61,804 bases of DNA. It comes from Candidatus Omnitrophota bacterium (lineage in GTDB: Bacteria; Omnitrophota; Gorgyraeia; JAHIPI01). Positions 6,772-60,404 of the stretch are shown here, in pieces. Each line of letters opens with the position of its first letter. Position 1 is the stretch's first letter. The notes below the pieces were generated by a model. It had not been told where the DNA came from. It was given only the letters and a program-made list of their open reading frames with translations, and did no database searches. Made by a program: the position numbers and the translations under genes. The stretch spans positions 1-61,804 of the forward strand of contig JAHIPI010000040.1 of assembly GCA_018894435.1 (NCBI GenBank), in the 5' to 3' direction.

Positions 6772-6773
6772 GT

Positions 6774-20110: not shown

Positions 20111-20128
20111 AGCGTTTGCGATGACCCA

Positions 20129-20150
20129 ATCCCTCGACGTTGCTCGGGAT
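20129..20150 (+). repeat. copy A of a dispersed hairpin motif (NNCCC-TCGNNNTYGCTC-GGGNN)
   Basis: ATCCC TCGACGTTGCTC GGGAT. See copies at 46685-46707 and 57556-57577. Confidence 0.7.
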
Positions 20151-20212
20151 GGTTCGAGGGAATGGTGAGCGAAGTCGAACCAAAGACTAAAGACGGCGGC
20201 ATGAGACGAGAG

Positions 20213-20262
20213 GGGGTCAGACCCTCAGCAATGTGTAGTTAACATAACGAGGGTCTGACCCC
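20213..20262. repeat. perfect 14-bp inverted repeat with a 22-nt spacer, just upstream of the pilT RBS
   Basis: GGGGTCAGACCCTC (20213-20226) / GAGGGTCTGACCCC (20249-20262). Each arm contains the near-palindrome GGGTCNGACCC. No T-tract follows. Confidence 0.8.
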
Positions 20263-20283
20263 GATAACACGCAAGGAGTAAGA

Positions 20284-21348
20284 ATGAAAACCGATATGAA
20301 CGCGCTTCTTGAAATATTGATCGCAAAAGGGGCATCCGACCTGCACCTCTCCGTAAATTCGCCGCCCAAAATAAGAATAGACGAGAGACTGGTAAATGCA
20401 ACGAACGATATTCTATATCCTGAAGACACGAAAAATCTTGCCTATAGCATTCTGTCAAAGGAGCAGATAGCTATTTTTGAGAAGAACAAGGAGCTGGACC
20501 TCTCCTTTGAGCTTCCGAAAAAAGGAAGGTTCAGGGTAAATATCTTTCTCCAGAGGGGAAGTGTAGGAGTAGCCATAAGGATGATACCTTATGATATAAT
20601 GAGTTTTGAGGAATGCGGCCTTCCGGTAGATGTCGTTACTTCTTTCTGCAGAAAACCTAAAGGGCTCGTACTTGTTACCGGTGCTACAGGCCATGGAAAA
20701 TCCACCTCTTTGGCATCCATGATAGATTTTATAAACAAAGAGCGCGATTGCCACATAGTGACGATAGAGGATCCGATAGAATTTGTGCATAGCAATAAAA
20801 AGGCGATAATAGACCAAAGAGAGGTCCATTACGATACCTATTCATTCGGCTCTGCCCTTAAACACGTCCTTCGCCAGGATCCGGATGTCATACTAATAGG
20901 CGAAATGAGGGACCTTGAGACGATAGAAGCTGCGCTCATAATAGCTGAAACGGGCCATCTTGTATTCGCGACATTGCATACATCCGACAGCATCCAGACG
21001 ATCAATAGGATTATAGACGTTTTTCCGTCTCATCAGCAGCAGCAGATACGCACGCAGCTCTCTTTTGTGCTTTTGGGTGTACTTTCGCAGCAATTGGTGC
21101 CAAAAAAGACGCTGTCCGGACGAGTGCTCGCTACGGAGGTTCTGATAATAACGCCTGCCGTTCGTTCTCTAATAAGAGAATCGAAAGTCCATCAGATGTA
21201 TTCCAGCATACAGACCGGACTGAAAGAAGGCATGCGCACAATGAACCAGTCATTGTACGAATTACATAAGAACGGCCTTGTAAGTTACGAGGAATGCTTT
21301 GCAAGGACGCTTGACACTGAAGATCTTGGAAGGCTGTTCAAAAAATAA
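20284..21348 (+). CDS. pilT: type IV pilus retraction ATPase PilT
   Basis: AAGGAG RBS. Walker A TGATGHGKSTSL, VILIGEMRD, and the PilT signature AVRSLIRESK. 354 aa. Confidence 0.92.
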   Translation: MKTDMNALLEILIAKGASDLHLSVNSPPKIRIDERLVNATNDILYPEDTKNLAYSILSKEQIAIFEKNKELDLSFELPKKGRFRVNIFLQRGSVGVAIRMIPYDIMSFEECGLPVDVVTSFCRKPKGLVLVTGATGHGKSTSLASMIDFINKERDCHIVTIEDPIEFVHSNKKAIIDQREVHYDTYSFGSALKHVLRQDPDVILIGEMRDLETIEAALIIAETGHLVFATLHTSDSIQTINRIIDVFPSHQQQQIRTQLSFVLLGVLSQQLVPKKTLSGRVLATEVLIITPAVRSLIRESKVHQMYSSIQTGLKEGMRTMNQSLYELHKNGLVSYEECFARTLDTEDLGRLFKK

Positions 21349-21369
21349 GAGGAAGGCGCTAAGGAGATT

Positions 21370-21825
21370 ATGCTGCCCGGAAAAAGAGTGATATCAAAAC
21401 AATTGGGAGACCTTCTCATGGAGAGGGGCTTAATAACTAAGGAAGGCTTGGAGAAGGCCCTTAAGATACAGAAGGAAAAAGGCGGGCTCTTAGGCGATAT
21501 ACTTGTGAGTATGGGGTGCACCACGGAAGAACAGATAGCCCAAGCCATTACGGTTCAGTATGGTTTCCCTTATTTACCTTTAGTCAGTTATGAAATAGAG
21601 ACTAGGATTGTAGACATGATATCGGAAAACGTTGCAAGGCAATATTGCCTCATAGGTGTGGATAAAATAGGTGATACGCTTACTATAGCAATGGCAAACC
21701 CTCTTAATACGCAGGCAATAGAGGACATAGAGATGATATCGGGCTCACGGGTGCAGATATTTGTCAGCACGACGACTGATATCAAAAATGCAATCGATAA
21801 GTACTATAAGAAAAAAGTAAAATAG
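21370..21825 (+). CDS. stand-alone MshEN/T2SSE_N domain protein (PilB N-terminus without an ATPase)
   Basis: QLGDLLMERGLITKEGLEKALKIQ-KEKGG-LLGDILVSMGCTTEEQIAQAITVQ (tandem MshEN-like 24-mers), then a T2SSE_N-like LIGVDKIGDTLTIAMANPLN. 151 aa with no Walker motifs. Confidence 0.8.
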   Translation: MLPGKRVISKQLGDLLMERGLITKEGLEKALKIQKEKGGLLGDILVSMGCTTEEQIAQAITVQYGFPYLPLVSYEIETRIVDMISENVARQYCLIGVDKIGDTLTIAMANPLNTQAIEDIEMISGSRVQIFVSTTTDIKNAIDKYYKKKVK

Positions 21826-21865
21826 CTATCAGCTGAAAGCTGACAGCTGATAGCTGAAAGCTATA
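21824..21865 (+). repeat. heptanucleotide tandem array H1 (6 x AGCTNNN) filling the spacer from stop codon to pilB1 ATG
   Basis: AGCTATC AGCTGAA AGCTGAC AGCTGAT AGCTGAA AGCTATA, then A-ATG. The first unit overlaps stop TAG 21823-21825. Contains an 11-bp inverted repeat AGCTATCAGCT/AGCTGATAGCT. Confidence 0.9.
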
Positions 21866-21866
21866 A

Positions 21867-23600
21867 ATGGCCTTATCATTAAAAGAACGCCTTAATAAGA
21901 TATTGCTTGAGAAGGGGCTTATTACCGCCGAGAAGCTCAAAGAAGCGATTGGAATGCAGAGGGAAAAAGGCGGTAAGCTCAGCGATATTTTAATCAATAA
22001 CGGCCTTATCGACAGAAAAGACCTCATGGTTGTGCTCAGCGAGGAGCTGGGCATCCCTCCGATAAACCTCTCCCGCTACAAAATAGACCCGTCGTTAATA
22101 CAATTAGTCCCGCGTAAATTCGCATACCGCTACAAGATGCTCCCGATTTCCAGGATGGGCAACCTTCTTACGGTGGCAATGGCCGATCCGTTGAATATAT
22201 TCGCAGTAGATGAAATAAAAACGCTTACCGGTTTTCAGATAGGCATACTTATTACTACTGATAAGGATATGGACGAAGCCATCGACCAATATTACGGCGA
22301 AAGCGCGCACGAAGCGATAGAAGAGATCATGGAGGGCATGGATAAAGTCGGCAGGATAGAAATGGTGGAAGAAGGCGCCGAAACGAAGAAAGCGGATTCT
22401 ACCGACCTCGTCCGAATGACCCAAGAGACGCCCGTCGTCGCAATAACAAATCTGCTTCTTTCCGAGGCGGTGAAGATGAGGGCGAGCGATATATTAATAG
22501 AGCCCATGGAGCGGGTTTTGCGGGTGAGGTATCGCGTAGACGGCATGCTTAAAGAGGCAAAGAATCCGCCGCGGTCCATGCACGAAGCCATTGTATCAAG
22601 GTTAAAGGTCATGTCAAATCTTAATATTTCGGAGCGCCGTCTGCCGCAGGACGGAAGATTTAAAATAAGGATACAGAATAGAGAAGTGGATTTCAGGATA
22701 TCCGTTCTTCCGTCGAGCGAAGGCGAAAAGGCGGCCATGAGGATCCTTGATAAAAGCCAGGCGATGCTTGATGTAAATAAGCTTGGCTTTGAAGATGCGC
22801 CCCTCAATGATTTAAAAAGAGAAGCCGAGAGGCCTCACGGCATGATATTAGTTTGCGGGCCTACGGGTTGCGGCAAGACGACCACACTTTATTCCATATT
22901 AAAAAATATCGATTCACCGGAAAAAAATATAGTGACGGTAGAAGATCCGGTGGAATACGATCTGTACGGGATAAACCAGGTATCAATACGGCCGGAAATA
23001 GGCCTGACATTCGCGAAATCCTTAAGAAGCATCTTAAGGCAGGATCCCGACGTAATAATGGTCGGGGAGATAAGGGATTTTGATACCGCGGATATTGCCA
23101 TCAAATCGGCGCTTACGGGCCATTTGGTCTTAAGCACCCTCCATACGACGACTGCGCCGGGGGCGGTTATCAGGCTTGTGAATATGGGAGTAGAACCTTT
23201 TTTGATAACGTCTTCGGTGGTACTTGTCGGGGCTCAGCGCCTTGCAAGAAAAATATGCCCAAACTGTAAAGAGGAATACAAAATAGATAAGGCTGCGATA
23301 GAGAGATGCAATATTCAGGTAAGCGGGGAGCCTCTATTTTACCGCGGAAAAGGATGCAAGAATTGTATTAATACCGGATATAAAGGAAGAGTGGGCCTTA
23401 TGGAGACACTCGTCCTGACCCCAAAAATAAAGACATTGATAGCAAATAGGGCCCAGGAATATCAGATAAAAGAGGCGGCACGGCAAGAGGGCATGGTTAC
23501 TTTAAGAGAGAACGGTCTCAAGAAAGTACTGGCCGGTATTACGACATGGGAAGAAGTCATCAGGTTGACGACCGGCGACCAGGACATGGATACGGTGTAA
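21867..23600 (+). CDS. pilB: type IV pilus assembly ATPase PilB (paralog 1)
   Basis: N-terminal RLNKILLEKGLITAEKLKEAIGMQ (MshEN-like), T2SSE_N, Walker A GPTGCGKTTTLYS, Zn motif CPNCKEEY...CKNC. Confidence 0.92.
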   Translation: MALSLKERLNKILLEKGLITAEKLKEAIGMQREKGGKLSDILINNGLIDRKDLMVVLSEELGIPPINLSRYKIDPSLIQLVPRKFAYRYKMLPISRMGNLLTVAMADPLNIFAVDEIKTLTGFQIGILITTDKDMDEAIDQYYGESAHEAIEEIMEGMDKVGRIEMVEEGAETKKADSTDLVRMTQETPVVAITNLLLSEAVKMRASDILIEPMERVLRVRYRVDGMLKEAKNPPRSMHEAIVSRLKVMSNLNISERRLPQDGRFKIRIQNREVDFRISVLPSSEGEKAAMRILDKSQAMLDVNKLGFEDAPLNDLKREAERPHGMILVCGPTGCGKTTTLYSILKNIDSPEKNIVTVEDPVEYDLYGINQVSIRPEIGLTFAKSLRSILRQDPDVIMVGEIRDFDTADIAIKSALTGHLVLSTLHTTTAPGAVIRLVNMGVEPFLITSSVVLVGAQRLARKICPNCKEEYKIDKAAIERCNIQVSGEPLFYRGKGCKNCINTGYKGRVGLMETLVLTPKIKTLIANRAQEYQIKEAARQEGMVTLRENGLKKVLAGITTWEEVIRLTTGDQDMDTV

Positions 23601-23603
23601 CAA

Positions 23604-25322
23604 ATGGCAAAATCGCTTAAAGACAGACTAGTGGAAGTACTCCTGGACAGCAAGCTCATCACCAAAGAGCAGCTTGACAAGGCGCTTAAGATGCAGAAGA
23701 AGGAGAAGTCCAATATAGGCGAGGTCCTGGTAAAAGAGGGCTTTATTACCCAAAAGGACCTGATGATAATACTGAGCCGCGAGCTCAATATCCCGCCGAT
23801 GAATCTCGCGAGATACAAGATCAGTCCCGATGTCATAAAACTCATACCCGAACGGATCGCAAAGCAGTATCATCTTCTTCCGGTGGCAATATTAGGCAAT
23901 ACCCTTACTTTGGCAATGAGCGACCCGCTCAATATATTCGCTATAGACGACATAAGAATGCTTACCAAGTTTGACATTGATCCGGTACTTGCCACAGAGA
24001 GTGATATAAAGGAAGCGATAAATATTTATTACGGTACCGCAAGCACGGAAATGTCGCAGATATTGGAGGATGCGAAAGAAAAGGAAGGAGAGTTAGAAGT
24101 AGTAGAGCACGAAGATATAGATATATCCCGCCTTACCGAAGAAAGCAAAAAAGCGCCCATAGTCAAAATGGTGGACCTTATGCTGGCGGAGGCGTTGAAA
24201 AAACGCGCGAGCGATATCCATATAGAACCGTGTGAGCGCGAATTGCGGATACGATACAGGATCGACGGCGCGCTTCATGAAGCCCTGACGCTTCCCAAGA
24301 AGAATCAAAATGCCGTATTGGCCAGATTGAAAATAATGTCAAAACTGGATATAACCGAGTCCCGGCTTCCTCAGGACGGAAGATTTAAGATACGCCTTGA
24401 AGGAAGAGAAGTGGATTTCAGGGTCTCTGTCCTACCCGTCTCCTACGGAAGCAAGGTGGTGCTGAGGGCACTTGATAAAAGCAGCTTGGGCGTCGGACTT
24501 GATAAATTGGGTTTTCTTAAAGAAGAACTCGAGAGGTTTGAAGAGGGCCTCAAGAGGCCTTATGGCATGTTGCTTCTCACGGGACCGACGGGATGCGGCA
24601 AATCTACGACTCTTTATTCTATACTTAACAAACTTAATACACCGGAGAAGAATATCATAACAGTCGAAGACCCCGTGGAGTATCAGGTCGAAGGAATTAC
24701 GCAAATTCCCGTCAACGCCGATATCGGGCTTACTTTTTCAGCAGGCTTAAGAGGGCTTCTAAGGCAGAGTCCGGATATTATAATGGTGGGAGAAATAAGG
24801 GATTTCGAAACGGCGGACATAGCCATTAAGGCATCTTTAACGGGCGAACTTGTGCTGAGTACTTTGCATACTAATGACGCGCCCGGCGCTATTACGCGAT
24901 TGATCGATATGGGGGTAGAGCCGTTTCTCGTTGCTTCAAGTATCGTCCTTACAGCCGCGCAGAGGTTATGCAGGCGTATATGTCCGCACTGTAAAGAAGA
25001 AGCGGATATACCTATGGCCGTACTGGAGAGAGTATGGATTAATAAGGCAGAAATGGATAAGCTGAAAGGAAAGAAGTTCTTCAAGGGCCGCGGCTGTCCC
25101 AAATGTAATAATACGGGTTACTACGGCCGGATGGGGACATTGGAAGTCCTTATAATAGACGATGCTATAAGAGACATGATTATAAAATGCGTCCCGGCTG
25201 ATCAATTAAAGGACTATGCCGTTAAACACGGTATGTCCACATTGAGGGATAACGCGCTTAAAAAGTTTATTAACGGCGATACGACGCTGGAGGAAGTGCT
25301 GAGGATTACGACGGTAGAATAG
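23604..25322 (+). CDS. pilB: type IV pilus assembly ATPase PilB (paralog 2, tandem)
   Basis: Begins 3 nt after paralog 1. RLVEVLLDSKLITKEQLDKALKMQ, GPTGCGKSTTLYS, CPHCKEE...CPKC. Confidence 0.92.
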   Translation: MAKSLKDRLVEVLLDSKLITKEQLDKALKMQKKEKSNIGEVLVKEGFITQKDLMIILSRELNIPPMNLARYKISPDVIKLIPERIAKQYHLLPVAILGNTLTLAMSDPLNIFAIDDIRMLTKFDIDPVLATESDIKEAINIYYGTASTEMSQILEDAKEKEGELEVVEHEDIDISRLTEESKKAPIVKMVDLMLAEALKKRASDIHIEPCERELRIRYRIDGALHEALTLPKKNQNAVLARLKIMSKLDITESRLPQDGRFKIRLEGREVDFRVSVLPVSYGSKVVLRALDKSSLGVGLDKLGFLKEELERFEEGLKRPYGMLLLTGPTGCGKSTTLYSILNKLNTPEKNIITVEDPVEYQVEGITQIPVNADIGLTFSAGLRGLLRQSPDIIMVGEIRDFETADIAIKASLTGELVLSTLHTNDAPGAITRLIDMGVEPFLVASSIVLTAAQRLCRRICPHCKEEADIPMAVLERVWINKAEMDKLKGKKFFKGRGCPKCNNTGYYGRMGTLEVLIIDDAIRDMIIKCVPADQLKDYAVKHGMSTLRDNALKKFINGDTTLEEVLRITTVE

Positions 25323-25340
25323 GGCAGTTAGGAGGGTAAC

Positions 25341-26555
25341 ATGGCATTATACAAGTATGTCGCGAAGAATACAAGCGGTCAGACCGTAACAGGGGTCTTA
25401 GATGCTCCGGACAGGGCCCTTTTAATCGGCAAGCTGAGAGAAAAAGATCTTGTCATAGTCTCTATTGCGGAAGCAAAGACGAGCATAACGCAACAGGGCG
25501 GGTTTTTTCAGCGTAGATCTGTAAATATAGATGATATGGTCATATTTTCGAGGCAGCTTGCCACTATGGTAGATGCGGGTATTCCCCTTGTCGGCGCGCT
25601 TGACATATTGGGCGAACAGATGGAGAACAAGACTTTTTCGGAGGTCATTTTGAATGTGAGGGATAATGTGGAGACGGGCTCAAGCCTCTCCGAGGCACTT
25701 TCAAAATATCCGAAGACATTCTCCACCCTATTCGTGAATATGGTGAAGGCCGGCGAATCAAGCGGTATGTTAGACGAGATACTGGACAGGGTGGCGACTT
25801 ATCTGGAAAAGACGAGCATACTGCAGAGAAAGATAAAATCGGCATTGATATACCCCGCGGTTATAACTTTCATGGCCATAGTCATTACAATTATTCTCCT
25901 TGTTAAAGTCATACCGGTCTTTAAAGATATATTCGCCGGTTTCGGCGCGGCATTGCCCCGCCCGACTCAGGTCTTGATTGATTTAAGCGATTTTTTGCGT
26001 AAGTATTTCTTTTTCGGCGTTGGCTTTCTAGTAATTATGATTTTTCTCCTTATTCGGTATATAAATACCGAAAAAGGGCGCCTCAGATTCGATACCATAA
26101 CGCTTACCATGCCCATATTCGGGATACTTCTTCGCAAAGTCGCGGTCAGCAAATTTACGCGCACCCTCTCCACCCTCGTAAAAAGCGGTGTGCCCATTTT
26201 GAGCTCGCTTGAGATAGTCGGCAAAACATCGGGCAATAAGCTTATAGAAAAGGCAGTGGTAAGTATAAGGTCCAGCATAAGGGAGGGGGAAAATATAGCA
26301 GAGCCGCTTGCTAAAAGTAAGGTATTCCCACCCATGGTCGTCAGGATGATTTCGGTAGGGGAGCAAACGGGCGAGCTTGAAAAGATGCTCTCAAAGATAG
26401 CTGACTTCTACGACGCGCAGGTAGATGCCGCTGTCACCGGCCTGACAAGCATGATAGAGCCCCTGATCATTGCCTTTTTGGGCATAGTAATCGGCACAAT
26501 CGTTATCTGTATGTTCCTGCCAATATTCAAGATATCGACGATTATAAATATGTAA
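25341..26555 (+). CDS. pilC: type IV pilus platform protein PilC (T2SSF family)
   Basis: GGAGGG RBS. Duplicated T2SSF repeats FSRQLATMVDAGIPL and FTRTLSTLVKSGVPIL. Three TM segments. Confidence 0.93.
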   Translation: MALYKYVAKNTSGQTVTGVLDAPDRALLIGKLREKDLVIVSIAEAKTSITQQGGFFQRRSVNIDDMVIFSRQLATMVDAGIPLVGALDILGEQMENKTFSEVILNVRDNVETGSSLSEALSKYPKTFSTLFVNMVKAGESSGMLDEILDRVATYLEKTSILQRKIKSALIYPAVITFMAIVITIILLVKVIPVFKDIFAGFGAALPRPTQVLIDLSDFLRKYFFFGVGFLVIMIFLLIRYINTEKGRLRFDTITLTMPIFGILLRKVAVSKFTRTLSTLVKSGVPILSSLEIVGKTSGNKLIEKAVVSIRSSIREGENIAEPLAKSKVFPPMVVRMISVGEQTGELEKMLSKIADFYDAQVDAAVTGLTSMIEPLIIAFLGIVIGTIVICMFLPIFKISTIINM

Positions 26556-26604
26556 CACAATAGTTTGGGTATCAGGGTATTCGGTTGTCCGGATATTCGG
26601 GGTA

Positions 26605-26633
26605 TTGATTTTTTTAGCTTTGTATGGTATACT
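26605..26633 (+). promoter_or_regulatory. sigma70-like promoter with extended -10 for pilin 1 (TTGATT-17 nt-TGGTATACT)
   Basis: TTGATT at 26605-26610, TATACT at 26628-26633 preceded by TGTATGG. Leader of about 135 nt to ATG 26775. Confidence 0.55.
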
Positions 26634-26774
26634 ATTATGGTACATGATACAAGTTAGGCGATGAAACAGGTGCCAATTCTGAAGTGGGTTATCATAAATA
26701 CCTCCCATAGAGGCGGCGGCCAAATCACCGGACTGTATCGAGCCATCCAGGCAATGAAGGGAGGATGATGTAAA

Positions 26775-27116
26775 ATGTTATGGCTAAATAGGAAAGGTTT
26801 TACGCTCGTTGAAATTATGATAGTTGTCGCAATTATAGGTTTATTGGCGGCTATAGCTATTCCTAACTTCGTGAAAGCCAGAGAGACGGCGCAGGCCAAT
26901 GCCTGTATCAATAACATGAGGCAGATAGAGTCCGCGAAGGAGCAATGGGCGCTTGAGAAAGGCAAGACCACAGGCGATGTTGTTGTTGATGCCGAGGCTG
27001 CGCTTTATATCAAGGGCGGTATGCCTACTTGCCCAGCAGCTGGTACGTATACTGTTGGTGTCGTTGGCACTGATGTTATTTGCTCACTTGCAGCAAAGGG
27101 CCACGTATTGCCGTAA
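26775..27116 (+). CDS. pilA: type IV pilin (probable major pilin)
   Basis: Class III signal peptide MLWLNRKG|FTLVEIMIVVAIIGLLAAIAIPNF with Glu at +5. C-terminal Cys pair CPAAGTYTVGVVGTDVIC. Strong terminator follows. Confidence 0.9.
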   Translation: MLWLNRKGFTLVEIMIVVAIIGLLAAIAIPNFVKARETAQANACINNMRQIESAKEQWALEKGKTTGDVVVDAEAALYIKGGMPTCPAAGTYTVGVVGTDVICSLAAKGHVLP

Positions 27117-27161
27117 TCGTTAGTTAGTAATAGTCGGCTAATTGCGAGTATTGTAAGTGAA

Positions 27162-27199
27162 AGAGCGATAGGTTGGTATTTACCTGTCGCTCTTTTTTT
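27162..27199 (+). terminator. intrinsic terminator after pilin 1
   Basis: AGAGCGATAGG (27162-27172) / CCTGTCGCTCT (27183-27193): 11-bp stem with one G-U, 10-nt loop, T-run to 27199. Confidence 0.8.
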
Positions 27200-27217
27200 A
27201 AGAAAAGTCAATATCCC

Positions 27218-27246
27218 TTGACAAAAGTAGTTATGTATGGTATTTA
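27218..27246 (+). promoter_or_regulatory. sigma70-like promoter for pilin 2 (TTGACA-17 nt-TGGTATTTA)
   Basis: TTGACA at 27218-27223, TATTTA at 27241-27246. Shares TGTATGGTAT with the pilin 1 promoter. Confidence 0.5.
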
Positions 27247-27304
27247 TTAAGTGATAATAATTTACTGTAATTATACTTCTATAAAGGCGTTGAAAGCCGA
27301 AAGA

Positions 27305-27661
27305 ATGTTGACTGTAAAAAATAAAGCAGGTTACACGTTAGTCGAGCTGATGATCGCGGTCATAATCATCGGCGTTTTAGCAAGCATAGCTTTACCCAAT
27401 TATTATAAAACGCGAATCGGTACCAGAAAAGGCATCTGCATGAATAACCTGCGCCAGATAGAAGCGGCGGTCGATAGATGGGTATTTGAGAACGATATCG
27501 ACGAGGGTTATTCGGTCACTCAGGGCGACGAAGACGAGATCTATGTCTACCTAAAGAACGGTAAACCCGAGTGCCCCGCCCGCGGGATTTACACAATAAG
27601 CGCGATAGGTACCTATCCGCAGATTAGTTGCAGTGTAGAAGGTCACGTACTAGCGCAATAA
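27305..27661 (+). CDS. type IV pilin paralog
   Basis: Start moved to ATG 27305: MLTVKNKAG|YTLVELMIAVIIIGVLASIALPNY. NNLRQIEAAVDRW is parallel to NNMRQIESAKEQW of pilin 1. C-terminal CPARGIYT...ISC. Confidence 0.85.
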   Translation: MLTVKNKAGYTLVELMIAVIIIGVLASIALPNYYKTRIGTRKGICMNNLRQIEAAVDRWVFENDIDEGYSVTQGDEDEIYVYLKNGKPECPARGIYTISAIGTYPQISCSVEGHVLAQ

Positions 27662-27789
27662 TTTTTATAACGTTCTTAAAACGGCATAAGCGTGGAAATA
27701 AATAGAAACGCGTTTGTAAAAGGTGCACTCATTTTACCGCAAAATTCATGTCCGGGTTCCGAGTAAATCAAAATCATTTAAGGTGAGGG

Positions 27790-28815
27790 ATGGGTCTATT
27801 CAGCGCATTTATTAAAACAGGCAAAGATCATATAGGCATAGATATTGGCTCTCATTCTGTCAAGACGGTGGAGCTTGTTAAGGAAAAGGACATCTTTCGG
27901 ATAAAGAATATGGGCTACGCAAGGGTAAAGAAGGCAAATTCTGCGGAAAGTCTCTTGGAAGCGATAAGCGAATCGGTCTCTATGGCCAAGATAGCGCCCA
28001 ATAAGGATGTTAATGTTGCGATATCCGGCTCGTCTGTAGTGGTGCGTTTCATAGAGCTGCCGCGCATGAATGAGGACGAGCTTAAGAACGCGATAATTTT
28101 TGAAGCTGAAAAATATATACCCTTTAGCGTGAATGACGTAATAATAGACCATCAACTTATTATTCCGCATTTAGCGGATAATAAGATGCTGGTGCTCCTC
28201 ATAGCGGCAAAGAAAGATGTTATTAATGAAAGGCTGGAAATTATAAATAAGGCCGGTTTATCAGTCAACATTATAGACGTGGTATCCCTTGCCGGCGTGA
28301 ATGCATTTTTGACTACGGCTGGGCGCAAAAAGGATGAAGTGGCTGCTATCATTAACGTGGGCGCAAAGGGGACCGATATAAGCATAGTTTCGGACGACAC
28401 TTTGTATTTTACCCGAAGTGTGCAGATAGGCGGGAACGATCTTACAAAAGCGCTTTCGGATTCTTTATCATTGGGCCAGAAGGAAGCGGAAGAGCTCAAG
28501 GTAAACCCCGGCGAGAGAGCCCGAGAGGTAAGCGAATGCGTAAAGACGGTGCTCTATACTATTGCCGATGAGATACGCCTTTCATTCAGCTATTATGAAA
28601 ACCAGTCCGGGCGAAATATAGGAAGGATTTATCTGAGCGGTGGTACGGCGAAGGGCATGAATATCGGCGATATACTGCATGAACGCCTGGATGTGGACGT
28701 AGAACTATGGGAACCTAGTGTATCTATGGCGATGGAGAGCCCCATTAAAAAAGAGTTGGCGGATTCGCTAAAATATCAGATGAGCACGGCAATAGGCCTT
28801 GCTCTAAGGCGATAA
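27790..28815 (+). CDS. pilM: type IV pilus assembly protein PilM (actin-like ATPase fold)
   Basis: IGIDIGSHSVKTVEL, 341 aa, followed by pilN and pilO. Confidence 0.9.
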   Translation: MGLFSAFIKTGKDHIGIDIGSHSVKTVELVKEKDIFRIKNMGYARVKKANSAESLLEAISESVSMAKIAPNKDVNVAISGSSVVVRFIELPRMNEDELKNAIIFEAEKYIPFSVNDVIIDHQLIIPHLADNKMLVLLIAAKKDVINERLEIINKAGLSVNIIDVVSLAGVNAFLTTAGRKKDEVAAIINVGAKGTDISIVSDDTLYFTRSVQIGGNDLTKALSDSLSLGQKEAEELKVNPGERAREVSECVKTVLYTIADEIRLSFSYYENQSGRNIGRIYLSGGTAKGMNIGDILHERLDVDVELWEPSVSMAMESPIKKELADSLKYQMSTAIGLALRR

Positions 28816-28819
28816 TCAT

Positions 28820-29473
28820 ATGATAGAGATCAATTTACTGCCTCATGAAATCAAAAGGAAGAGAAGAAAGATAGAGCTTCCTGATATATCTTTCCTGCCT
28901 GTGCTCGCCGGCTTTCTGGGGGTTATAATCATAATCCATCTCTTTGTCGGGCTTATGGTGGCAATGAAAGCCAAGACCTTCAAAGGGCTTGAGCGAAAAT
29001 GGCAGTCTGTTTTACCAAACAAGGAGGAAGCGGATAATATAAAGGCGGAACTTACCAGCACGAGGACTAAAATAGACACCATAGACAAGCTTATAGAAAC
29101 GAGACGCAGTTGGGCGGTCAGGCTTAATGATATCAGTGATTCTATGATACCCGGCGTATGGCTTAATAAGCTCTGGCTGGAGAAGCGGGTTATTATACAG
29201 GAAGCGTCGTCGGCAAAAATCAATTCCGGAGAAGGCGCCGCTAAAGCAGCGAAAGAACCCAAAAAGACGATAATAAGGACTTTGCATTTAAACGGCAGCG
29301 TTATTGCCGGAGGCGGGGAAGAGACTGCCGTTATCGGTAAATTTATAAGAAGCCTTAAAGATAACAAGAATTTTATGCCGGATTTCAGCGATATAGAATC
29401 GGCCTCAATACAGCGGACTAAATTGAAGGACGCGGAAGTAATGGACTTCGAGCTTATTTGCTATTTTAAATAG
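28820..29473 (+). CDS. pilN: type IV pilus assembly protein PilN
   Basis: MIEINLLP start, single TM LPVLAGFLGVIIIIHLFVGLMV, gene order. Confidence 0.85.
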   Translation: MIEINLLPHEIKRKRRKIELPDISFLPVLAGFLGVIIIIHLFVGLMVAMKAKTFKGLERKWQSVLPNKEEADNIKAELTSTRTKIDTIDKLIETRRSWAVRLNDISDSMIPGVWLNKLWLEKRVIIQEASSAKINSGEGAAKAAKEPKKTIIRTLHLNGSVIAGGGEETAVIGKFIRSLKDNKNFMPDFSDIESASIQRTKLKDAEVMDFELICYFK

Positions 29474-29477
29474 AAAT

Positions 29478-29540
29478 AGCTCTCAGCCATCAGCTCTCAG
29501 CTATCAGCTGAAAGCTGACGACTGAAAGCTGAAAGCTGAA
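29478..29540 (+). repeat. heptanucleotide tandem array H2 (9 units) filling the pilN-pilO spacer
   Basis: AGCTCTC AGCCATC AGCTCTC AGCTATC AGCTGAA AGCTGAC GACTGAA AGCTGAA AGCTGAA, then A-ATG. The 21-nt AGCTATCAGCTGAAAGCTGAC is identical to H1. Confidence 0.9.
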
Positions 29541-29541
29541 A

Positions 29542-30132
29542 ATGGACATGGATTTTTTGAAAAAAGCAAAGAAGAACGAAATATTAGCCCTTACCGGATT
29601 AATATGCGCCGGCATACTCGTGGGCTATTTTCTGCTTTTCTTGAATCCGATGCTGTCAAAGTTATTTGACGTTTCGCGCAAAGTCGCCAAGCTGCAAAGC
29701 GATCTTTCCATCGCGGAACTATCTATAGACAGCATGCCTAAGATGAAAAAAGAGATAGCCGACCTAAAAAATAAGGCGTTAAGCTATATTAATAAACTTC
29801 CAAAAGAAGAGGAGCTGCCGGCGCTTCTGGAAAGCCTTTCTATGATGGCTCAGGGTGCGGATGTCAAGATAACGAAAATAGTGCCCATAAAAGATACAGA
29901 AGTTGTAAAAGACGCCAAAACTCCCAAGGCCAGTATATATGAGGAAAAGGGCATACTGGTACATGCGCAGTGCGGATACCACCAGTTAGGTACGTTTATC
30001 GCGCAGCTTGAAAATGCCGAGCGGTTTATGGATATATCCGACATCACTATAGAGAGTATTAGGACCACGCCTAAACGGCATAATGTCCAGCTTATAGTCA
30101 AGACGTTTGTCTTAAAGGATAAAACCAAATGA
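29542..30132 (+). CDS. pilO: type IV pilus assembly protein PilO
   Basis: N-terminal TM, a coiled coil, and a C-terminal ferredoxin-like segment (GYHQLGTFIAQLEN). Gene order. Confidence 0.8.
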   Translation: MDMDFLKKAKKNEILALTGLICAGILVGYFLLFLNPMLSKLFDVSRKVAKLQSDLSIAELSIDSMPKMKKEIADLKNKALSYINKLPKEEELPALLESLSMMAQGADVKITKIVPIKDTEVVKDAKTPKASIYEEKGILVHAQCGYHQLGTFIAQLENAERFMDISDITIESIRTTPKRHNVQLIVKTFVLKDKTK

Positions 30133-30497
30133 GAAAACAGGCAGCTTTAACGAGCGCAATTTTTTTTATTTTTCTCTTTCTCGTCCCTGCCGAAGGCCAG
30201 GTATATAAGTATTACAGTAAGGGCAAAAGAGACCCCTTTATACCCCTAGTAACCGGCGAAGTAAGGACAAGTTTGGGGCTACAGGCGGTGGAGGATATAG
30301 ACGACGTAAGGTTAGAGGGCGTAATATTTGACCCTAACGGCAAATCCATAGTAGTGCTGAACGACGAGATCCTAAAGGAAGGGGATAAGATGTATAATGT
30401 GGAAGTGCTGAAGATTACTAAGGATTCAGTTACTATAAAGGTCCATGACAGGATGCATACGATCAGCCTGGTCGAGGAAGGAGGCAAGGAGAGTTGA
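30129..30497 (+). CDS. pilP: PilP-like periplasmic pilus assembly protein
   Basis: Signal peptide, RDPFIPL motif, small beta-domain. ATGA overlap with pilO. Confidence 0.65.
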   Translation: MRKQAALTSAIFFIFLFLVPAEGQVYKYYSKGKRDPFIPLVTGEVRTSLGLQAVEDIDDVRLEGVIFDPNGKSIVVLNDEILKEGDKMYNVEVLKITKDSVTIKVHDRMHTISLVEEGGKES

Positions 30498-32122
30498 AGA
30501 AAAAAATAATATTTTTAGGCGTCTTACTCACATTTTTTATAGCAATAAACGGAAATTTGCATTCCCGGGCCGAGGATGTAACCGGGGGTTCGTTTCTCAC
30601 AGAGGCTCCCGCAATTGACGCAGAGAATGGCGCGGATGCGGCTCAGACAGGGCCGCCGGCCGACACACAAGCGGAACCGGAGATAGAGGCCTCAAAAGAA
30701 AAGTCCGAATATGATATGATGAGCGAAAGGATAGCCCCGGGAAACATAACGGTAGATTTCAAAGAAGCGGACATACGGACGGTGCTTCGCATTCTCTCCG
30801 AAAAAAGCGGGGTGAATATAGTGGCTAGTAAAGATGTTGCGGGAACGATAACCATTCGCTTAAATAACGTATATTGGGAAAAGGCGCTTGATATTATCTG
30901 CAAGAATTACGGCTATGCCTTTGAGCGGGACGGAAATATTATCAGGGTGACGACCGTAGAAAATTTGAAGCAGGAAGAATTGACCACGGAAGTCTTTTCC
31001 CTGAATTATGCAAATGCGGAAGATGTCGCAGTGGCCGTAGCGGAGATGCTTAGCTCGCGCGGCAAGGATAAAGTAAAGTTTGACGAGAGAACGAACGTAT
31101 TGATAGTGACCGACATACCTACAAACCTCTATAAAATAAGGCAGGTTGTGGATAAGCTGGATAAGAGGACGCCGCAGGTCCTGATAGAAGCCAAGATTAT
31201 AGAGACGACGCTTGTTGATACTGAAAATCTCGGGATAGACTGGACCGTGAAATTGTCGGCCTACGGTGCAAAGAGGCCGATAACGTTTCCGTTTACCGTA
31301 TCAGGCACATTGTCTTATTTGGGCATACCAAAAGACATGTGGAATACTTTTATGCCGAGGGTCGAAGGTACTACCGACACGACAACCACCGGTTCAGGCG
31401 GGGTCACTGTTACCGATACAGATAGTTTTTTTCCTATTGAGTTGGGACAATTTAGGCAATGGAGCGATTCGCCGTTTCCCCTTACGGAGGCGGATCAATT
31501 TACGTTCGGCACGCTTGACTTTTCGCAATTTTCGCTTGTCCTTGAATATCTGAAATCGCGCCGGGATACTAATGTTCTTTCAAATCCGCGGATTGCCACA
31601 TTGAATAACCAGGAAGCAAATATACTTGTCGGCACCATATTGGCTATACCGAAGTTTGAGAGAAACCCCGACACCGGCACGATGGAAGTGACGGGTTATA
31701 CCGAAAAGGATCTCGGTATCAAGCTGAACGTAATACCGCATATAAACGCTTCGGGCGATATAGTGGTGGATCTCAGGCCTGAGATCTCTGATTTGCTCGG
31801 GTTTGATACGCTTGACGCGTCAAGGGGGCTGGTAGCGCCTAGATATTCAACGAGGGAGGCAACGACCCAGATAATGGTCAGGGACGGCGAGACTATTATG
31901 ATAGGCGGTCTTATAAGAGAAAACACGGTCAATTACAAGAAGAAGGTTCCCTGGTTGGGAGACATACCCGTCCTGGGAAGGGCGCTGTTTACAAAGACGG
32001 AAGAAACCATTCAGAAGACGGAGCTGATCATATTTATGACTGTTCATCTAATAAATAGCGATACGTCCGATTTTGGCCTGGTTCCTTCTTCGGCTCTTGT
32101 TCCGATGCCCGCTAAGAAGTGA
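30494..32122 (+). CDS. pilQ: type IV pilus secretin PilQ
   Basis: TTG start overlapping the pilP stop. Signal peptide, N0-like ITVDFKEADIRTVLRILSEKSGVNIV, secretin signature KVPWLGDIPVLGRALF. Confidence 0.9.
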   Translation: MKKKIIFLGVLLTFFIAINGNLHSRAEDVTGGSFLTEAPAIDAENGADAAQTGPPADTQAEPEIEASKEKSEYDMMSERIAPGNITVDFKEADIRTVLRILSEKSGVNIVASKDVAGTITIRLNNVYWEKALDIICKNYGYAFERDGNIIRVTTVENLKQEELTTEVFSLNYANAEDVAVAVAEMLSSRGKDKVKFDERTNVLIVTDIPTNLYKIRQVVDKLDKRTPQVLIEAKIIETTLVDTENLGIDWTVKLSAYGAKRPITFPFTVSGTLSYLGIPKDMWNTFMPRVEGTTDTTTTGSGGVTVTDTDSFFPIELGQFRQWSDSPFPLTEADQFTFGTLDFSQFSLVLEYLKSRRDTNVLSNPRIATLNNQEANILVGTILAIPKFERNPDTGTMEVTGYTEKDLGIKLNVIPHINASGDIVVDLRPEISDLLGFDTLDASRGLVAPRYSTREATTQIMVRDGETIMIGGLIRENTVNYKKKVPWLGDIPVLGRALFTKTEETIQKTELIIFMTVHLINSDTSDFGLVPSSALVPMPAKK

Positions 32123-32129
32123 TAAGAAC

Positions 32130-32462
32130 GTGAAGTATTCGGCGGTAATCAGGTTTAAAAAGACGGGCATGATGAGGTACATATCCCACCTTGACCTTCT
32201 GAGATTATTCCAGAGGGCCTCCAGGAGAGCGGGCCTGCCGCTTTTTCTTACGGAAGGCTTCAATCCGCATCCGAAAATAAAGATCGAGCCTGCGCTTAAG
32301 CTGGGGCTGGAAGCCGACGACCTGCGCGCGGAAATCACCCTCACGCAATATATTTTGCCTAAGGATGTATCCGAAAAGCTCGGGAAAGAGCTGCCGCGCG
32401 GTATAGAAATTACAGAAGTAGAAGGAGATAAATCCAGATATGAAAAAAGAGATAATAGTTAA
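32130..32462 (+). CDS. short DUF2344/TIGR03936-like protein (radical-SAM-associated), possibly C-terminally truncated
   Basis: In-frame GTG 32130, 8 nt after the pilQ stop. VIRFKKTGMMRYISHLDLLRLFQRASRRAGLPL...GFNPHPKI. Only 110 aa. Overlaps rng by 23 nt. Confidence 0.65.
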   Translation: MKYSAVIRFKKTGMMRYISHLDLLRLFQRASRRAGLPLFLTEGFNPHPKIKIEPALKLGLEADDLRAEITLTQYILPKDVSEKLGKELPRGIEITEVEGDKSRYEKRDNS

Positions 32463-33942
32463 CGCTACCCCGGAAGAGAGCAGGGTAGCAATTTTAAATA
32501 ACGGAAGAATAGAGGAATATTATGTTGAAAGGACCTCGGCGCAGCGCCTGGTAAGCAGCGTCTACAAAGGCAAAGTTGAATCTATAATGGCGGGTATCGG
32601 CGCAGCTTTCGTAAATATAGGGCTTGAGAAAAACGGCTTTCTTTACGTGGATGATATTATCGAAGAAGGCGCCGCAAATATAGACATCTTGGAAGACGAG
32701 CTGGACGCGGATCATAAGAAAAGGGACGCTAACCTGCCGCGCCCGAAGATAACAGATATCTTAAAAAAGGGGCAGGAAGTGCTTGTGCAGGTAGTGAAAG
32801 AGCCCTTGGGCACGAAAGGCGCCAGACTTACGGCGCATGTTACTTTACCCGGAAGGTACATCGTCCTCATGGCTCACGATACGCATAAAGGCATCTCCAA
32901 AAAGATAAGCGACGCAAAGGAAAGAAAAAGGCTCAAGGCAATAATAGATGAGATCAATCTACCGAAGAATATAGGCGTCATCGTAAGGACTGCCGCGATA
33001 GGCCACACGAGGGAAGAATTGCGCCGGGAAGCGAGCTATCTTTACAATCTATATAGGCGCATAGAGAAAATCGCCTCGAGAAAATCGGCGCCGGCCCTGG
33101 TCAACGAGGAATACGGGCTTGTGCAGCGCGTGGCGCGGGACAACCTTGCCGAAGACGTAAGTTTCATGATCATAGATTCAAAAGTGGAATACCAAAAGAC
33201 TTTAGCGCTTTTAAGGATGATGTCGCCAAAACTAAGGACAAAGCTGAAACTGCATACAGCTCCGCAGTCGATATTTGAAAAATTCAATATAGCCGGCGAA
33301 ATAGAAAAAATATTCGATGCGAGAGTCAATCTTCCGTCAAAGGGATACATAATAATACAGCCGACCGAAGGGCTTGTCGCCATAGATGTGAATAGCGGCG
33401 GATTCTCAAGCCGCAACCCCGAAGAGACCTCCTACATAACAAACAAAGAGGCGGCTATCGAGATCGCAAGGCAGTTGAAGTTGAGGGATATGGGCGGCAT
33501 AATAGTTATAGACTTCATAGACATGGAAGTGAGAGATCACCGGCAGTCAGCTATGCAGATTTTTCTTAACGCGCTTAAAAATGACAAGGCAAAGACAAAG
33601 GTACTCAATTTCTCAAGTATCGGGCTCGTGGAAATGACAAGGCAGAGAGTCAGGAAAAGCCTTGAAGGGGCGTCGCATAACACATGTCCGTACTGCGGAG
33701 GCAGAGGAACAGTAAAGTCGCTCGCGACCATGTCGATAGAATTATTAGGGCTTCTAGAGAAGAAGTTGAAGACAGAGCGTTACAAGAAGGTTCAGGTGGC
33801 TATAAACGCTGACCTCAAAGAATACCTGCTGCAAAATTATAAAAAAGCTATTAATAATGTTGGAAGAAATGCAAGATGCAATATTATTCTAAACGCCGAT
33901 AGCCATCTGCATGTTGAAGATGTAAGGGTGAGTATTGGTTAG
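32440..33942 (+). CDS. rng: ribonuclease G/E family endoribonuclease
   Basis: S1 domain VYKGKVESIMAGIGAAFVNIG, catalytic core AIDVNSG, Zn-link CPYCGGRG. Confidence 0.9.
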   Translation: MKKEIIVNATPEESRVAILNNGRIEEYYVERTSAQRLVSSVYKGKVESIMAGIGAAFVNIGLEKNGFLYVDDIIEEGAANIDILEDELDADHKKRDANLPRPKITDILKKGQEVLVQVVKEPLGTKGARLTAHVTLPGRYIVLMAHDTHKGISKKISDAKERKRLKAIIDEINLPKNIGVIVRTAAIGHTREELRREASYLYNLYRRIEKIASRKSAPALVNEEYGLVQRVARDNLAEDVSFMIIDSKVEYQKTLALLRMMSPKLRTKLKLHTAPQSIFEKFNIAGEIEKIFDARVNLPSKGYIIIQPTEGLVAIDVNSGGFSSRNPEETSYITNKEAAIEIARQLKLRDMGGIIVIDFIDMEVRDHRQSAMQIFLNALKNDKAKTKVLNFSSIGLVEMTRQRVRKSLEGASHNTCPYCGGRGTVKSLATMSIELLGLLEKKLKTERYKKVQVAINADLKEYLLQNYKKAINNVGRNARCNIILNADSHLHVEDVRVSIG

Positions 33943-55803: not shown

Positions 55804-55831
55804 CAATTAGCAACATCAGCTGAAAGCTAAA
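55802..55831 (+). repeat. degenerate heptad array H3 filling the larB-gspE spacer
   Basis: AGCAATT AGCAACA TC AGCTGAA AGCTAAA. Shares ATCAGCTGAAAGCT (55815-55828) with H1 and H2. The first unit overlaps stop TAG 55801-55803. Confidence 0.7.
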
Positions 55832-55835
55832 AAAC

Positions 55836-57545
55836 ATGCCGATAAAACCCGAAATAATCGAAGAGATGCTTAAAGGGACCGGGCTCCTTCGCGCCGACGA
55901 GATAAAGGATGCCCTTCGCCTCCAGCGCGATACAAGAGAACGGCTCGGACTTATTTTTTTAAGGAAGGGTAGTATATCGGACGAAAATATAAGAAGCGTC
56001 GTTACCGCTCAGATAGGCATCGAAACCGAAAAGACAGAAAACCTGAAGATAGAGTCTGATACTTTAAGAAAAGTTCCGGTGACCTTTGCCCACCACCACC
56101 GCGTAATCCCCGTAAAATTCGAGAACGATACCCTTACCGTCGCAACGGATAACCCGTTTAATTTTCTTGCGTTCGGCAACTTTAAAATTTTCCTCGGTTA
56201 TAAAATAGAAGGTATTCTTACCACCGGGCAGGATCTGGATGATTTGCTGGAAAAGTATTACGGATTAAAAGAAGGCGCGCCCATTGACGCGCTGGTAGCG
56301 GGTATGGATACCCGTAAGAAGATAACGCTGAGAGAGATTGAAGAAGAAAAGGCTCGGCCGATATCAAAAGAAGAGGAGACGCCCGTAGTCAAGCTGGTAG
56401 GCCTTCTTATAGCCGAAGCCTTTAAGAAAAGAGCAAGCGATGTCCATATAGAACCCCTCGAAAACAAATTTCGTATAAGGTATAGGATCGACGGCGTGCT
56501 TCATGAAGTGCCCGGCCCTCCTAAAAGATTACAGGCCTCGGTCATAAGCAGAGTTAAGATAATGGCCGGAATGGACATAGCGGAAAAGAGGCTCCCGCAG
56601 GACGGAAGGATCAGGATAGAGATAGGCGGTAAAGAATTGGACCTCAGGGTCTCAACCCTTCCCGCCATATACGGCGAAAGCGTAGTCTTGCGAATATTGG
56701 ATAAATCCAGCTTCCTGCTTGGGTTGAAAGAGCTGGGATTTATGCCTGAGGATGAGAAGAGATTCGAACGCCTTATAAAAGCGCCTAACGGCATACTTCT
56801 TGTTACGGGGCCTACAGGCAGTGGTAAGACGACGACTCTTTACGCCTCGCTTAGCCACATAAATAAACCTGACAGAAAACTGATCACGGTTGAAGATCCG
56901 GTTGAATATCAGATAAGCGGCATAAACCAGGTGCAGGTCAAGCCGCAGATAAACCTTACATTTGCCATGGGACTGAGGAGCATATTGCGCCAGGCCCCCG
57001 ACGTAATAATGGTGGGCGAAATAAGAGATTTTGAGACAGCGCAGATAGCGATACAGGCAGCGCTCACCGGCCATCTTGTTTTTTCGACCTTGCACACAAA
57101 TGATGCGCCCGGGGCGGTGACCAGGTTGATAGATATGGGCATTAAGCCCTATCTTGTCGCCTCGGCCCTTCAGGCAGTACTAGCCCAGCGGCTTGTCAGG
57201 GTGATATGCCCCAACTGCAAAGAAGAATACGATCCCAGTAAGGAAGAGATAGCGGCGCTGAATCTCAAGCCGGAACAATTGAAAAAAGCTAAATTTTTTA
57301 GAGGAAAAGGGTGCGACGAATGCGGTAATAGCGGTTATCGGGGCAGGATAGGTATTTTTGAATTACTAATAATGACTGATGAGGTGCGGGAGATGATATT
57401 TGAAAAGGCCTCGAGCAGCACGCTAAAGGAAAAGGCAAAGAATTTCGGGATGGCGACTCTTAGAGAAGACGGAGTGAGGAAGGTGCTAAAAGGCATGACC
57501 ACTGTATCGGAAGTAATGAGAGTAACGCAGCAGGATGTGGTTTGA
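55836..57545 (+). CDS. GspE/PilB-class secretion ATPase (paralog 3)
   Basis: GPTGSGKTTTLYA, CPNCKEEY...CDEC. The N-terminal second half-motif RLGLIFLRKGSISDENIRSVVTAQ is MshEN-like. Confidence 0.9.
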   Translation: MPIKPEIIEEMLKGTGLLRADEIKDALRLQRDTRERLGLIFLRKGSISDENIRSVVTAQIGIETEKTENLKIESDTLRKVPVTFAHHHRVIPVKFENDTLTVATDNPFNFLAFGNFKIFLGYKIEGILTTGQDLDDLLEKYYGLKEGAPIDALVAGMDTRKKITLREIEEEKARPISKEEETPVVKLVGLLIAEAFKKRASDVHIEPLENKFRIRYRIDGVLHEVPGPPKRLQASVISRVKIMAGMDIAEKRLPQDGRIRIEIGGKELDLRVSTLPAIYGESVVLRILDKSSFLLGLKELGFMPEDEKRFERLIKAPNGILLVTGPTGSGKTTTLYASLSHINKPDRKLITVEDPVEYQISGINQVQVKPQINLTFAMGLRSILRQAPDVIMVGEIRDFETAQIAIQAALTGHLVFSTLHTNDAPGAVTRLIDMGIKPYLVASALQAVLAQRLVRVICPNCKEEYDPSKEEIAALNLKPEQLKKAKFFRGKGCDECGNSGYRGRIGIFELLIMTDEVREMIFEKASSSTLKEKAKNFGMATLREDGVRKVLKGMTTVSEVMRVTQQDVV

Positions 57546-57555
57546 AAATAATGTA

Positions 57556-57577
57556 GTCCCTCGGCTTCGCTCGGGAC
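57556..57577 (+). repeat. copy B of the dispersed hairpin motif, upstream of pilT2
   Basis: GTCCC TCGGCTTCGCTC GGGAC. Confidence 0.7.
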
Positions 57578-57616
57578 GATTTGCAGCCGAGCAATAGAGG
57601 GCAAATCGGAGGGCAT

Positions 57617-60396: not shown

Positions 60397-60404
60397 GATA
60401 ACGC

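Follow-up and report, generated by a model that had tools for sequence, protein, structure and literature searches.

The stretch of DNA analyzed here, 61,804 nt of contig JAHIPI010000040.1 from a Candidatus Omnitrophota bacterium (the window), carries two tandem arrays of 7-nt AGCT-based units, H1 and H2, which fill the spacers in front of the type IV pilus (T4P) genes pilB and pilO, and a third, shorter copy in front of another pilB paralog. Our analysis indicates that these three arrays are probably local copies of a little-described repeat family that is widespread, dispersed, and quick to turn over. Its heptamers often follow an inverted copy of themselves, and they would provide an AUG context independent of a Shine-Dalgarno (SD) sequence. 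The family extends beyond pilus genes, is biased in its orientation toward start codons, precedes diverse and essential genes, and is gained, lost, or replaced between close relatives. The element is an SD-replacing, start-codon-proximal heptamer repeat that resembles the short tandemly repeated repetitive (STRR) sequences of cyanobacteria; it is of a known kind, with another unit. The original prediction, made from the sequence of the window, had proposed a pilus-specific and length-variable control of translation or processing. The tempting story of a pilus switch falls away; a generic repeat appears to have entered the pilus operon and taken over from an SD-bearing spacer. A single heptamer aimed at start codons across phyla is the part most worth attention.

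Heptamer arrays in the window

H2 (29478-29540) comprises nine 7-nt units followed by a single A and the pilO ATG at 29542, and H1 (21824-21865) comprises six units followed by a single A and an ATG at 21867. Each array ends 1 nt from its start codon. Both had been predicted in exactly these terms, and the coordinates also bear out the claim that the arrays fill stop-to-start spacers. The spacer between the pilN-like gene and pilO (29474-29541) consists nearly entirely of 7-nt units, and the first AG of H1 is part of the TAG stop codon of the upstream MshEN-only open reading frame (ORF), which leaves 21826-21866, again nearly all 7-nt units, as the spacer between that ORF and pilB. The arrays sit between stop and start codons inside operons, in neither promoter spacers nor reading frames.

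The basic unit is AGCT plus a 3-nt spacer, which reads GAN in forward units and NTC in reverse units, and the units of the window arrays mostly have A or C at N. H2 is no single direct array. It is an inverted pair, with four reverse units, a central ATC, and five forward units, and its left arm reads AGCTGAT AGCTGAG AGCTGAT GGCTGAG on the minus strand. The 21-mer AGCTATCAGCTGAAAGCTGAC is found in both H1 and H2. The third copy, which is absent from the original prediction, shares ATCAGCTGAAAGCT with H1 and H2 and ends 5 nt before its ATG.

The arrays are real and nonrandom, as had been claimed. Tandem Repeats Finder detects period-7 arrays at 21831-21862 and 29478-29541 only across the whole 61.8-kb window. 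The motif AGCTNNNAGCTNNNAGCT, a run of three AGCT tetramers spaced 7 nt apart, has 6 occurrences in the window versus 0.02 expected from dinucleotide shuffles, and pairs of AGCT at a distance of 7 nt are confined to H1, H2, and the third copy. The H2 array is identical in four independent assemblies (the window and three others), and it is therefore no assembly artifact.

Distribution of the arrays across phyla

When one genome per species was scanned for three perfect AGCTGAN units, at least 120 loci were recovered, in a sample that is neither complete nor unbiased. The arrays occur in at least 10 phyla, which include Omnitrophota, Planctomycetota, Cyanobacteria, Gemmatimonadota, Bacteroidota, Verrucomicrobia, Chloroflexi, Actinomycetota, and others. 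Acidobacteriota account for most of the matches listed, and several genomes contain two or three loci. Arrays of AGCTGAT are present in the filamentous cyanobacteria Okeania, Moorena, and Microcoleus. The seventh base of the unit is free, with T more frequent than C and C more frequent than A and G, which are equal. AACTGA is a minority variant, found in 13 of about 330 nonseed units.

The 21-mer shared by H1 and H2 was also found in 22 metagenome contigs with GC contents of 41-74%, typically where a reverse arm meets a forward arm, and it is the usual center of inverted arrays. Its presence in both window arrays stands as predicted; its being special to them does not. These 22 unrelated contigs also rule out the 21-mer as a trace of a recent duplication between H1 and H2. 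Five low-GC contigs (L124, L133, L138, L143, and L144) carry 32-38 nt identical to H2, including its irregular AGCTGAC-GACTGAA step. The distance from the 21-mer to the ATG is exactly 22 nt in L127, where the downstream gene is carB, and in L144, the same spacing that H1 and H2 have. Such matches suggest that the element is copied as a block and does not arise by in-place slippage alone.

The genes downstream of the arrays are varied. Their Pfam assignments include thymidine kinase, CinA, LeuA, ribosomal protein S9, ATP synthase epsilon (atpC), 4-alpha-glucanotransferase (MalQ), FolD, S11, L17, Kdo transferase (WaaA), HslU, CarB, a CbiA/ParA-like NTPase, and RNase Y. The LeuA and Kdo transferase loci belong to metagenome-assembled genomes (MAGs) labeled Omnitrophota and have nearly the architecture of H2, with a reverse arm bearing AGCC or AGTC variants, a forward arm, and AAAA-ATG. 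Within one ribosomal-protein operon of Acidobacteriota (L101), two arrays (4256-4289 and 6766-6792) stand just before rpsK (S11) and rplQ (L17). Restriction-modification sites (AGCT or CAGCTG) and DNA uptake sequences were considered as explanations and set aside, as the array spans many phyla.

At another locus of Acidobacteriota (L103), an AGCTGAN array precedes a gene resembling that of a formate dehydrogenase iron-sulfur subunit, a label assigned by eye only, and positions 1742-1800 match the Rfam family SECIS_3 with 69.7 bits.

Orientation toward start codons and Shine-Dalgarno status

Among the 136 arrays of the genome loci, an ORF of 100 aa or more begins within -10 to +12 nt of the array 3' end in 24 of 136 cases in the forward orientation versus 6 of 136 in the reverse orientation (binomial p = 0.0014). 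Widening the interval to +25 nt gives 40 forward versus 13 reverse. The usual ending is a final AGCT, 2-4 nt, and the start codon, as in GAGCTAC-ATG, AAGCTTCC-ATG, and GAGCTAAAA-ATG, and the window arrays agree with this pattern.

We scored an SD sequence as any 4-mer of AGGAGGT located 4-13 nt upstream of a start codon. No such 4-mer precedes 21867, 29542, or 55836 at that distance, which upholds the earlier statement that both genes downstream of H1 and H2 lack an SD. However, only 28 of the 60 window genes have an SD by the same criterion, and its absence is thus unexceptional there. The relatives support the idea that the array stands in place of an SD at one junction, as their orthologous pilN-pilO spacers are 4-16 nt long and several contain motifs of the AAGGAG or AAGGG type. 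Units with T at the seventh position contain UGAU, which could presumably pair with the AUCA beside the anti-SD of 16S rRNA; the units of the window arrays, however, seldom have T there.

Turnover at the pilus junctions

The pilus operon is syntenic in Omnitrophota relatives, and the spacers that correspond to those of H1 and H2 are listed in Table 1. The same junctions in relatives hold a short SD spacer, an unrelated hairpin, or an array of another heptamer, and we therefore regard the window arrays as recent. By this comparison, they appear to be lineage-specific, fast-turnover occupants of junctions that were ancestrally short and SD bearing, and periodic repeats able to form hairpins seem to have entered these junctions time and again. 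The differences between species amount to wholesale replacement rather than gain or loss of units. The arrays of the relatives are predicted to fold into rods in which helices of 5-7 bp are broken by small internal loops at regular intervals; what seems to be conserved is the period and the architecture, and not the unit sequence. Arrays of this kind mark recent insertions and can confuse the calling of start codons and operon models in MAGs.

Spacers of the relatives contain inverted tandem arrays of 7-8-nt units other than AGCTGAN, at 2147-2222 and 14570-14816 in L146, 10150-10257 in L148, 2438-2596 in L149, and 2313-2465 in L152. The unit types in those spacers are TAGCGTN/CTAAACG, AGCTTAN, CACAGAT/ATCTGTG, AATAACCAA, and GGTAGTG.

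Copy number does not change among the four assemblies, which come from different samples. The three other assemblies that carry pilO are at least 99.9% identical to the window overall, and identical arrays in such close genomes therefore say little about long-term slippage. These data argue against hypervariability and leave room for slower slippage. The expected slippage-prone variation in length did not materialize, either in the four near-identical assemblies, which share the same array, or between species, which differ by replacement.

Association with pilus genes

We searched the 16 pilus proteins of the window against all array loci. T4P genes lie near 1 of the 120 genome loci listed and near none of the 22 metagenome loci, or 1 of the 142 loci sampled. 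The sole pilus-linked locus (L116, 1466-1511) is on the minus strand of Vibrio profundi, where four tandem AGCTATC units, all of the reverse sense, make up most of a 46-nt pilB-pilC spacer, and this is probably a coincidence. All three copies within the 62-kb window precede pilus genes, with a nominal p of about 0.016.

The reading originally put forward, a pilus-specific translational or processing switch whose length varies by slipped-strand mispairing, can draw on these three of three copies, on the Vibrio spacer, and on the fact that a 7-nt unit is slippage prone in principle. Against it stand the single pilus-linked locus among the 142 sampled elsewhere, the leuA and waaA genes that follow arrays in other Omnitrophota, the several relatives that have the same operon without any array, and the uniform copy number in four assemblies from different samples. 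The arrays also lie outside coding sequences and promoter spacers, which are the usual places of contingency repeats. It is the least supported of the readings and barely credible, as the distribution largely refutes it. Pilus specificity is likewise unsupported, with arrays in at least 10 phyla and before varied genes. The association with pilus genes in the window is most likely incidental.

Folding and strand asymmetry

AGCT is self-complementary, and direct and inverted arrays can therefore both fold. H1 is predicted to form a 13-bp stem on either strand at about -23 kcal/mol with a z score of about -4. The sense-strand values (-22.6 kcal/mol, z of -4.1) bear out the hairpin potential first noticed for H1. 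The plus strand of H2 folds at -29.4 kcal/mol (z of -3.1) with an A·C mismatch at each variable position. Every one of these mismatches becomes a G·U pair on the minus strand, which forms a perfect 25-bp stem at -43.4 kcal/mol (z of -8.7). The last A-rich bases and the AUG lie outside the predicted stem in all cases (the window, L021, L115, L146, and L148).

The strength of the minus-strand fold raises the idea that the arrays are intrinsic terminators or insulators of the antisense strand, whose stems, of 25 bp in H2 and 12 bp in H1, and the U-rich tracts after them would stop antisense transcription through the operon. H1 (21824-21855) and H2 (29482-29527) are indeed the top minus-strand terminator-like matches within 20000-32500, and four Omnitrophota examples fold more stably in antisense than in sense. 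Across 15 start-adjacent inverted arrays, however, there is no consistent strand asymmetry (9 versus 6), which also led us to reject an RNA acting on the antisense strand as a general rule. The U-rich tails are explained by the upstream genes, whose 3' ends are A rich, terminator-like sites are no more numerous in total than expected from shuffles, and no evidence of antisense promoters was found. Antisense termination is therefore a highly improbable explanation. For a sense-strand intrinsic terminator, no plus-strand match was found at H1 or H2, where the only matches are on the minus strand.

Searches against Rfam at the gathering threshold returned nothing in the window and nothing at the arrays of 18 other loci. 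With the E value relaxed to 10, H2 gave only generic matches to miRNA precursor hairpins, far under the threshold.

A possible role in translation initiation

Under the reading that we favor, the arrays in this Omnitrophota lineage would have either arrived by insertion at two or three stop-to-start junctions of T4P operons or expanded there, and at pilN-pilO the array would have displaced a short ancestral spacer bearing an SD. In the mRNA, the palindromic AGCT cores would pair to give a segmented stem of 4-6-bp helices with small internal loops at the variable positions, and the last few A-rich nucleotides and the AUG would stay unpaired. Bacterial genes without an SD rely on low structure around the start codon, and translation of the downstream gene would accordingly begin without an SD, at a start codon left exposed and free of structure. 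With the stem between them, the downstream cistron would be uncoupled from the upstream cistron, and the local stability of the mRNA may be affected, too. These arrays offer concrete loci for asking how SD-less genes initiate and what STRR-like heptamers do.

Several points weigh against this reading. We infer a translational role, acting in cis on the mRNA, from sequence and predicted structure. The genome sample has the limits given above, and the start calls behind the orientation bias are ORF based and noisy in GC-rich loci. About 80% of the arrays elsewhere are not beside a start codon, and T-runs follow some of these, a clear sign that the family occurs in more than one setting. The N positions of the two arms are complementary in 1 of 12 cases in three Omnitrophota examples, versus 3 expected. 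This difference is not significant, and selection for arm complementarity at these positions is rejected; with the N positions of the arms not complementary, selection for the hairpin itself is not demonstrated. Lastly, all three copies in the window precede pilus genes, and a local preference for such genes may exist.

Some of the same points would fit neutral or selfish simple-sequence DNA that spreads by slippage, recombination, or copying, is tolerated where it does least harm, and has no effect on expression. Junctions that gain, lose, and exchange repeats quickly from one close relative to the next would be expected of such DNA, as would the many arrays beside no start codon, the variable positions without complementarity, and the identical segments common to dispersed copies. 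We nonetheless consider this explanation unlikely. The 4:1 orientation bias toward starts requires at least a selective filter, and the presence of the same heptamer in at least 10 phyla and at 41-74% GC is hard to attribute to drift alone. At pilN-pilO, moreover, the array replaced an SD-bearing spacer, and any neutral DNA there must therefore be at least compatible with initiation.

Relation to known repeats

STRR heptamers of cyanobacteria were reportedly described by Mazel et al. in 1990 as tandem repeats dispersed in intergenic regions, including within operons. The analogy to STRR sequences drawn in the original prediction is apt: both are heptameric, tandem, and intergenic, and AGCTGAT arrays occur in cyanobacteria, too. 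The STRR families, however, were defined in heterocystous and filamentous cyanobacteria and have other units, and the host of the window is a member of Omnitrophota. The orientation bias toward start codons and the inverted arms belong to the AGCTGAN arrays.

REP, BIME, and REPIN elements are dispersed imperfect palindromes in intercistronic and 3' spacers that form stem-loops in mRNA and are tied to RAYT transposases. The AGCTGAN arrays resemble them in being dispersed and imperfectly palindromic, in their rapid turnover, and in their long identical segments (32-38 nt across separate contigs here). REPs differ in having no internal 7-nt periodicity and a lineage-specific sequence, and we know of no tendency of REPs to abut start codons. 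Contingency repeats are also unlike the window arrays, which show no copy-number variation among the four assemblies and lie outside the reading frame and promoter elements.

In Nostoc PCC 7120, the heptamers TTTTGAA and GACYAAT occur beside promoters or near or overlapping the starts of genes with poor or distant SDs (bioRxiv 10.1101/2022.06.06.494920). Deletion of these repeats altered the behavior of reporters and a translational role was suspected, and the effects were mainly on transcription factor access (bioRxiv 10.1101/2022.06.06.494920). The likeness to the AGCTGAN arrays lies in contiguous heptamers beside start codons; the unit sequences are different.

The closest match is the TAACTGA repeat of marine Beggiatoaceae, of which 169 sets of 2-6 copies were reported, mostly intergenic and oriented forward toward a start codon (PMC4679880). 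Their commonest position is 1 nt upstream of the start, they overlap the SD position, and SDs are rare in these spacers. The downstream genes are unrelated and include ribosomal-protein operons, and the repeats place stop codons in all three frames. TAACTGA repeats were also found in some Cyanobacteria and Bacteroidetes. TAGCTGA never appears as a repeat in the Beggiatoaceae genome, and a table in that study predicts a stem-loop for TAGCTGA (all PMC4679880). Like these repeats, the window arrays are tandem, intergenic 7-nt units that are oriented toward the start, end within a few nucleotides of it, and occupy the usual place of an SD without containing one; stop codons again fall in each of the three frames, and the wider AGCTGAN family precedes varied genes. 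Written in the register used here, TAACTGA becomes AACTGAT, which differs from AGCTGAT at a single base. The two are further linked because single arrays mix both units: AGCTGAN and AACTGAN (and AACAGAC) occur together within arrays at about 4815-4880 in L004, about 5755-5837 (minus strand) in L056, and 7508-7611 in L071.

The two repeats differ in other respects. The core is AGCTGA here and AACTGA there, and the seventh base is free here. The AGCT palindrome of our arrays folds, often with an inverted arm, whereas TAACTGA is predicted to be unstructured. The hosts here are mainly Acidobacteriota, with Omnitrophota, Planctomycetota, and others. No paper describing the AGCTGAN array sequence was found in the literature searched; the broader assertion that no element of this kind had been described does not hold, since the TAACTGA repeats have the same geometry (PMC4679880). 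Our results widen that observation of 2015 from a few lineages to a much broader set of bacteria.

These parallels bring in a protein-binding platform, which is MacGregor's hypothesis for the TAACTGA repeats (PMC4679880). Applied here, a conserved RNA- or DNA-binding protein, with S1, Csp-like, and CsrA-like proteins as candidates, would control a posttranscriptional regulon through the arrays. A conserved 6-nt core with one free position in a strict 7-nt register across phyla is what a binding site might look like, and the orientation bias, the fixed nearness to the AUG, and the arrays in ribosomal-protein operons, as in Beggiatoaceae (PMC4679880), point the same way. Nevertheless, quite different heptamers occupy the same junction in relatives, contrary to a sequence-specific factor in this lineage, there is no functional theme among the downstream genes, and the candidate proteins are hypothetical. 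We regard such a platform as very doubtful.

A bolder proposal is that the (A-R-C-T-G-A-N)n arrays and the TAACTGA repeats of Beggiatoaceae form one cross-phylum class of SD-substituting cis elements, read by a conserved component of translation such as S1 or another factor that binds single strands or stems. We put it forward as a speculation that is quite unlikely to be correct as a whole. If it is true, Acidobacteriota, Omnitrophota, Planctomycetota, and others would have in common a widespread way of selecting start sites that has gone unrecognized.

Features of the window and its surroundings

Table 1 collects the arrays, the genes next to them, and the corresponding spacers of the relatives. 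The PilN-like gene has no Pfam match.

TABLE 1 Arrays and adjoining genes in the window and corresponding spacers in Omnitrophota relatives
Feature	Position or locus	Strand	Description
H1	21824..21866	+	AGCTATC, four AGCTGAN units, AGCTATA, then A
H2 left arm	29478..29505	+	Four reverse-sense units: AGCT-CTC, AGCC-ATC, AGCT-CTC, AGCT-ATC
H2 right arm	29506..29541	+	Five forward units, AGCTGAA AGCTGAC GACTGAA AGCTGAA AGCTGAA, plus A
Third, short copy	55816..55835	+	TCAGCTGAAAGCTAA (55816-55830), then AAAAC, directly before ATG at 55836
MshEN-domain-only ORF, upstream of H1	21370..21825	+	
pilB paralog 1, downstream of H1	21867..23600	+	MshEN and T2SSE domains; without SD
PilN-like gene, upstream of H2	28820..29473	+	Labeled from its position between PilM and PilO only
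pilO, downstream of H2	29542..30132	+	PF04350; without SD
pilB paralog 3, downstream of third copy	55836..57545	+	MshEN and T2SSE domains; without SD
pilN-pilO spacer	L155		4 nt
pilN-pilO spacer	L153, L148, L149		8 nt; SD-like motif in L153
pilN-pilO spacer	L152		13 nt, CAAGGGAATAAAA; SD-like motif
pilN-pilO spacer	L151		16 nt, with AAGGAG
pilN-pilO spacer	L146		Unrelated 54 nt ending GGAGAGAG; about 93% DNA identity, PilO 95%
pilN-pilO spacer	L147, L150		Other inverted-repeat elements, 132-134 nt
MshEN-pilB spacer	L153		9 nt
MshEN-pilB spacer	L149		Shorter AGCTGAN array
MshEN-pilB spacer	L146		Inverted array of another heptamer, TAGCGTN/CTAAACG, then AAAAA-ATG
MshEN-pilB spacer	L152		153-nt inverted array of AATAACCAA-like units

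The window contains two pilus gene sets (20284-32122 and 55836-61676), an arrangement that is kept across Omnitrophota relatives. Together they encode three full-length PilB paralogs, two PilT-like ATPases, two PilC proteins, and the stand-alone MshEN ORF. The ORF at 53997-54527 has a bactofilin domain and, at its C terminus, an HTH_17 DNA-binding domain; a stand-alone HTH_17 protein (54653-55027) follows it. Immediately upstream of the window on the same contig, L156 (23-7810) encodes a 2,595-aa RHS/YD-repeat protein with dockerin-like and carboxypeptidase-regulatory-like domains. The remainder of the source contig is this one giant RHS-repeat gene and offers no further spacers.

A different, GC-rich hairpin motif, CCCTCGA...TCGAGGG / GTCCCTCGG...CGGGAC, recurs at 20111-20283 and 57546-57580 in the window and at 12265-12561 in L148, and it may be another dispersed palindromic element.

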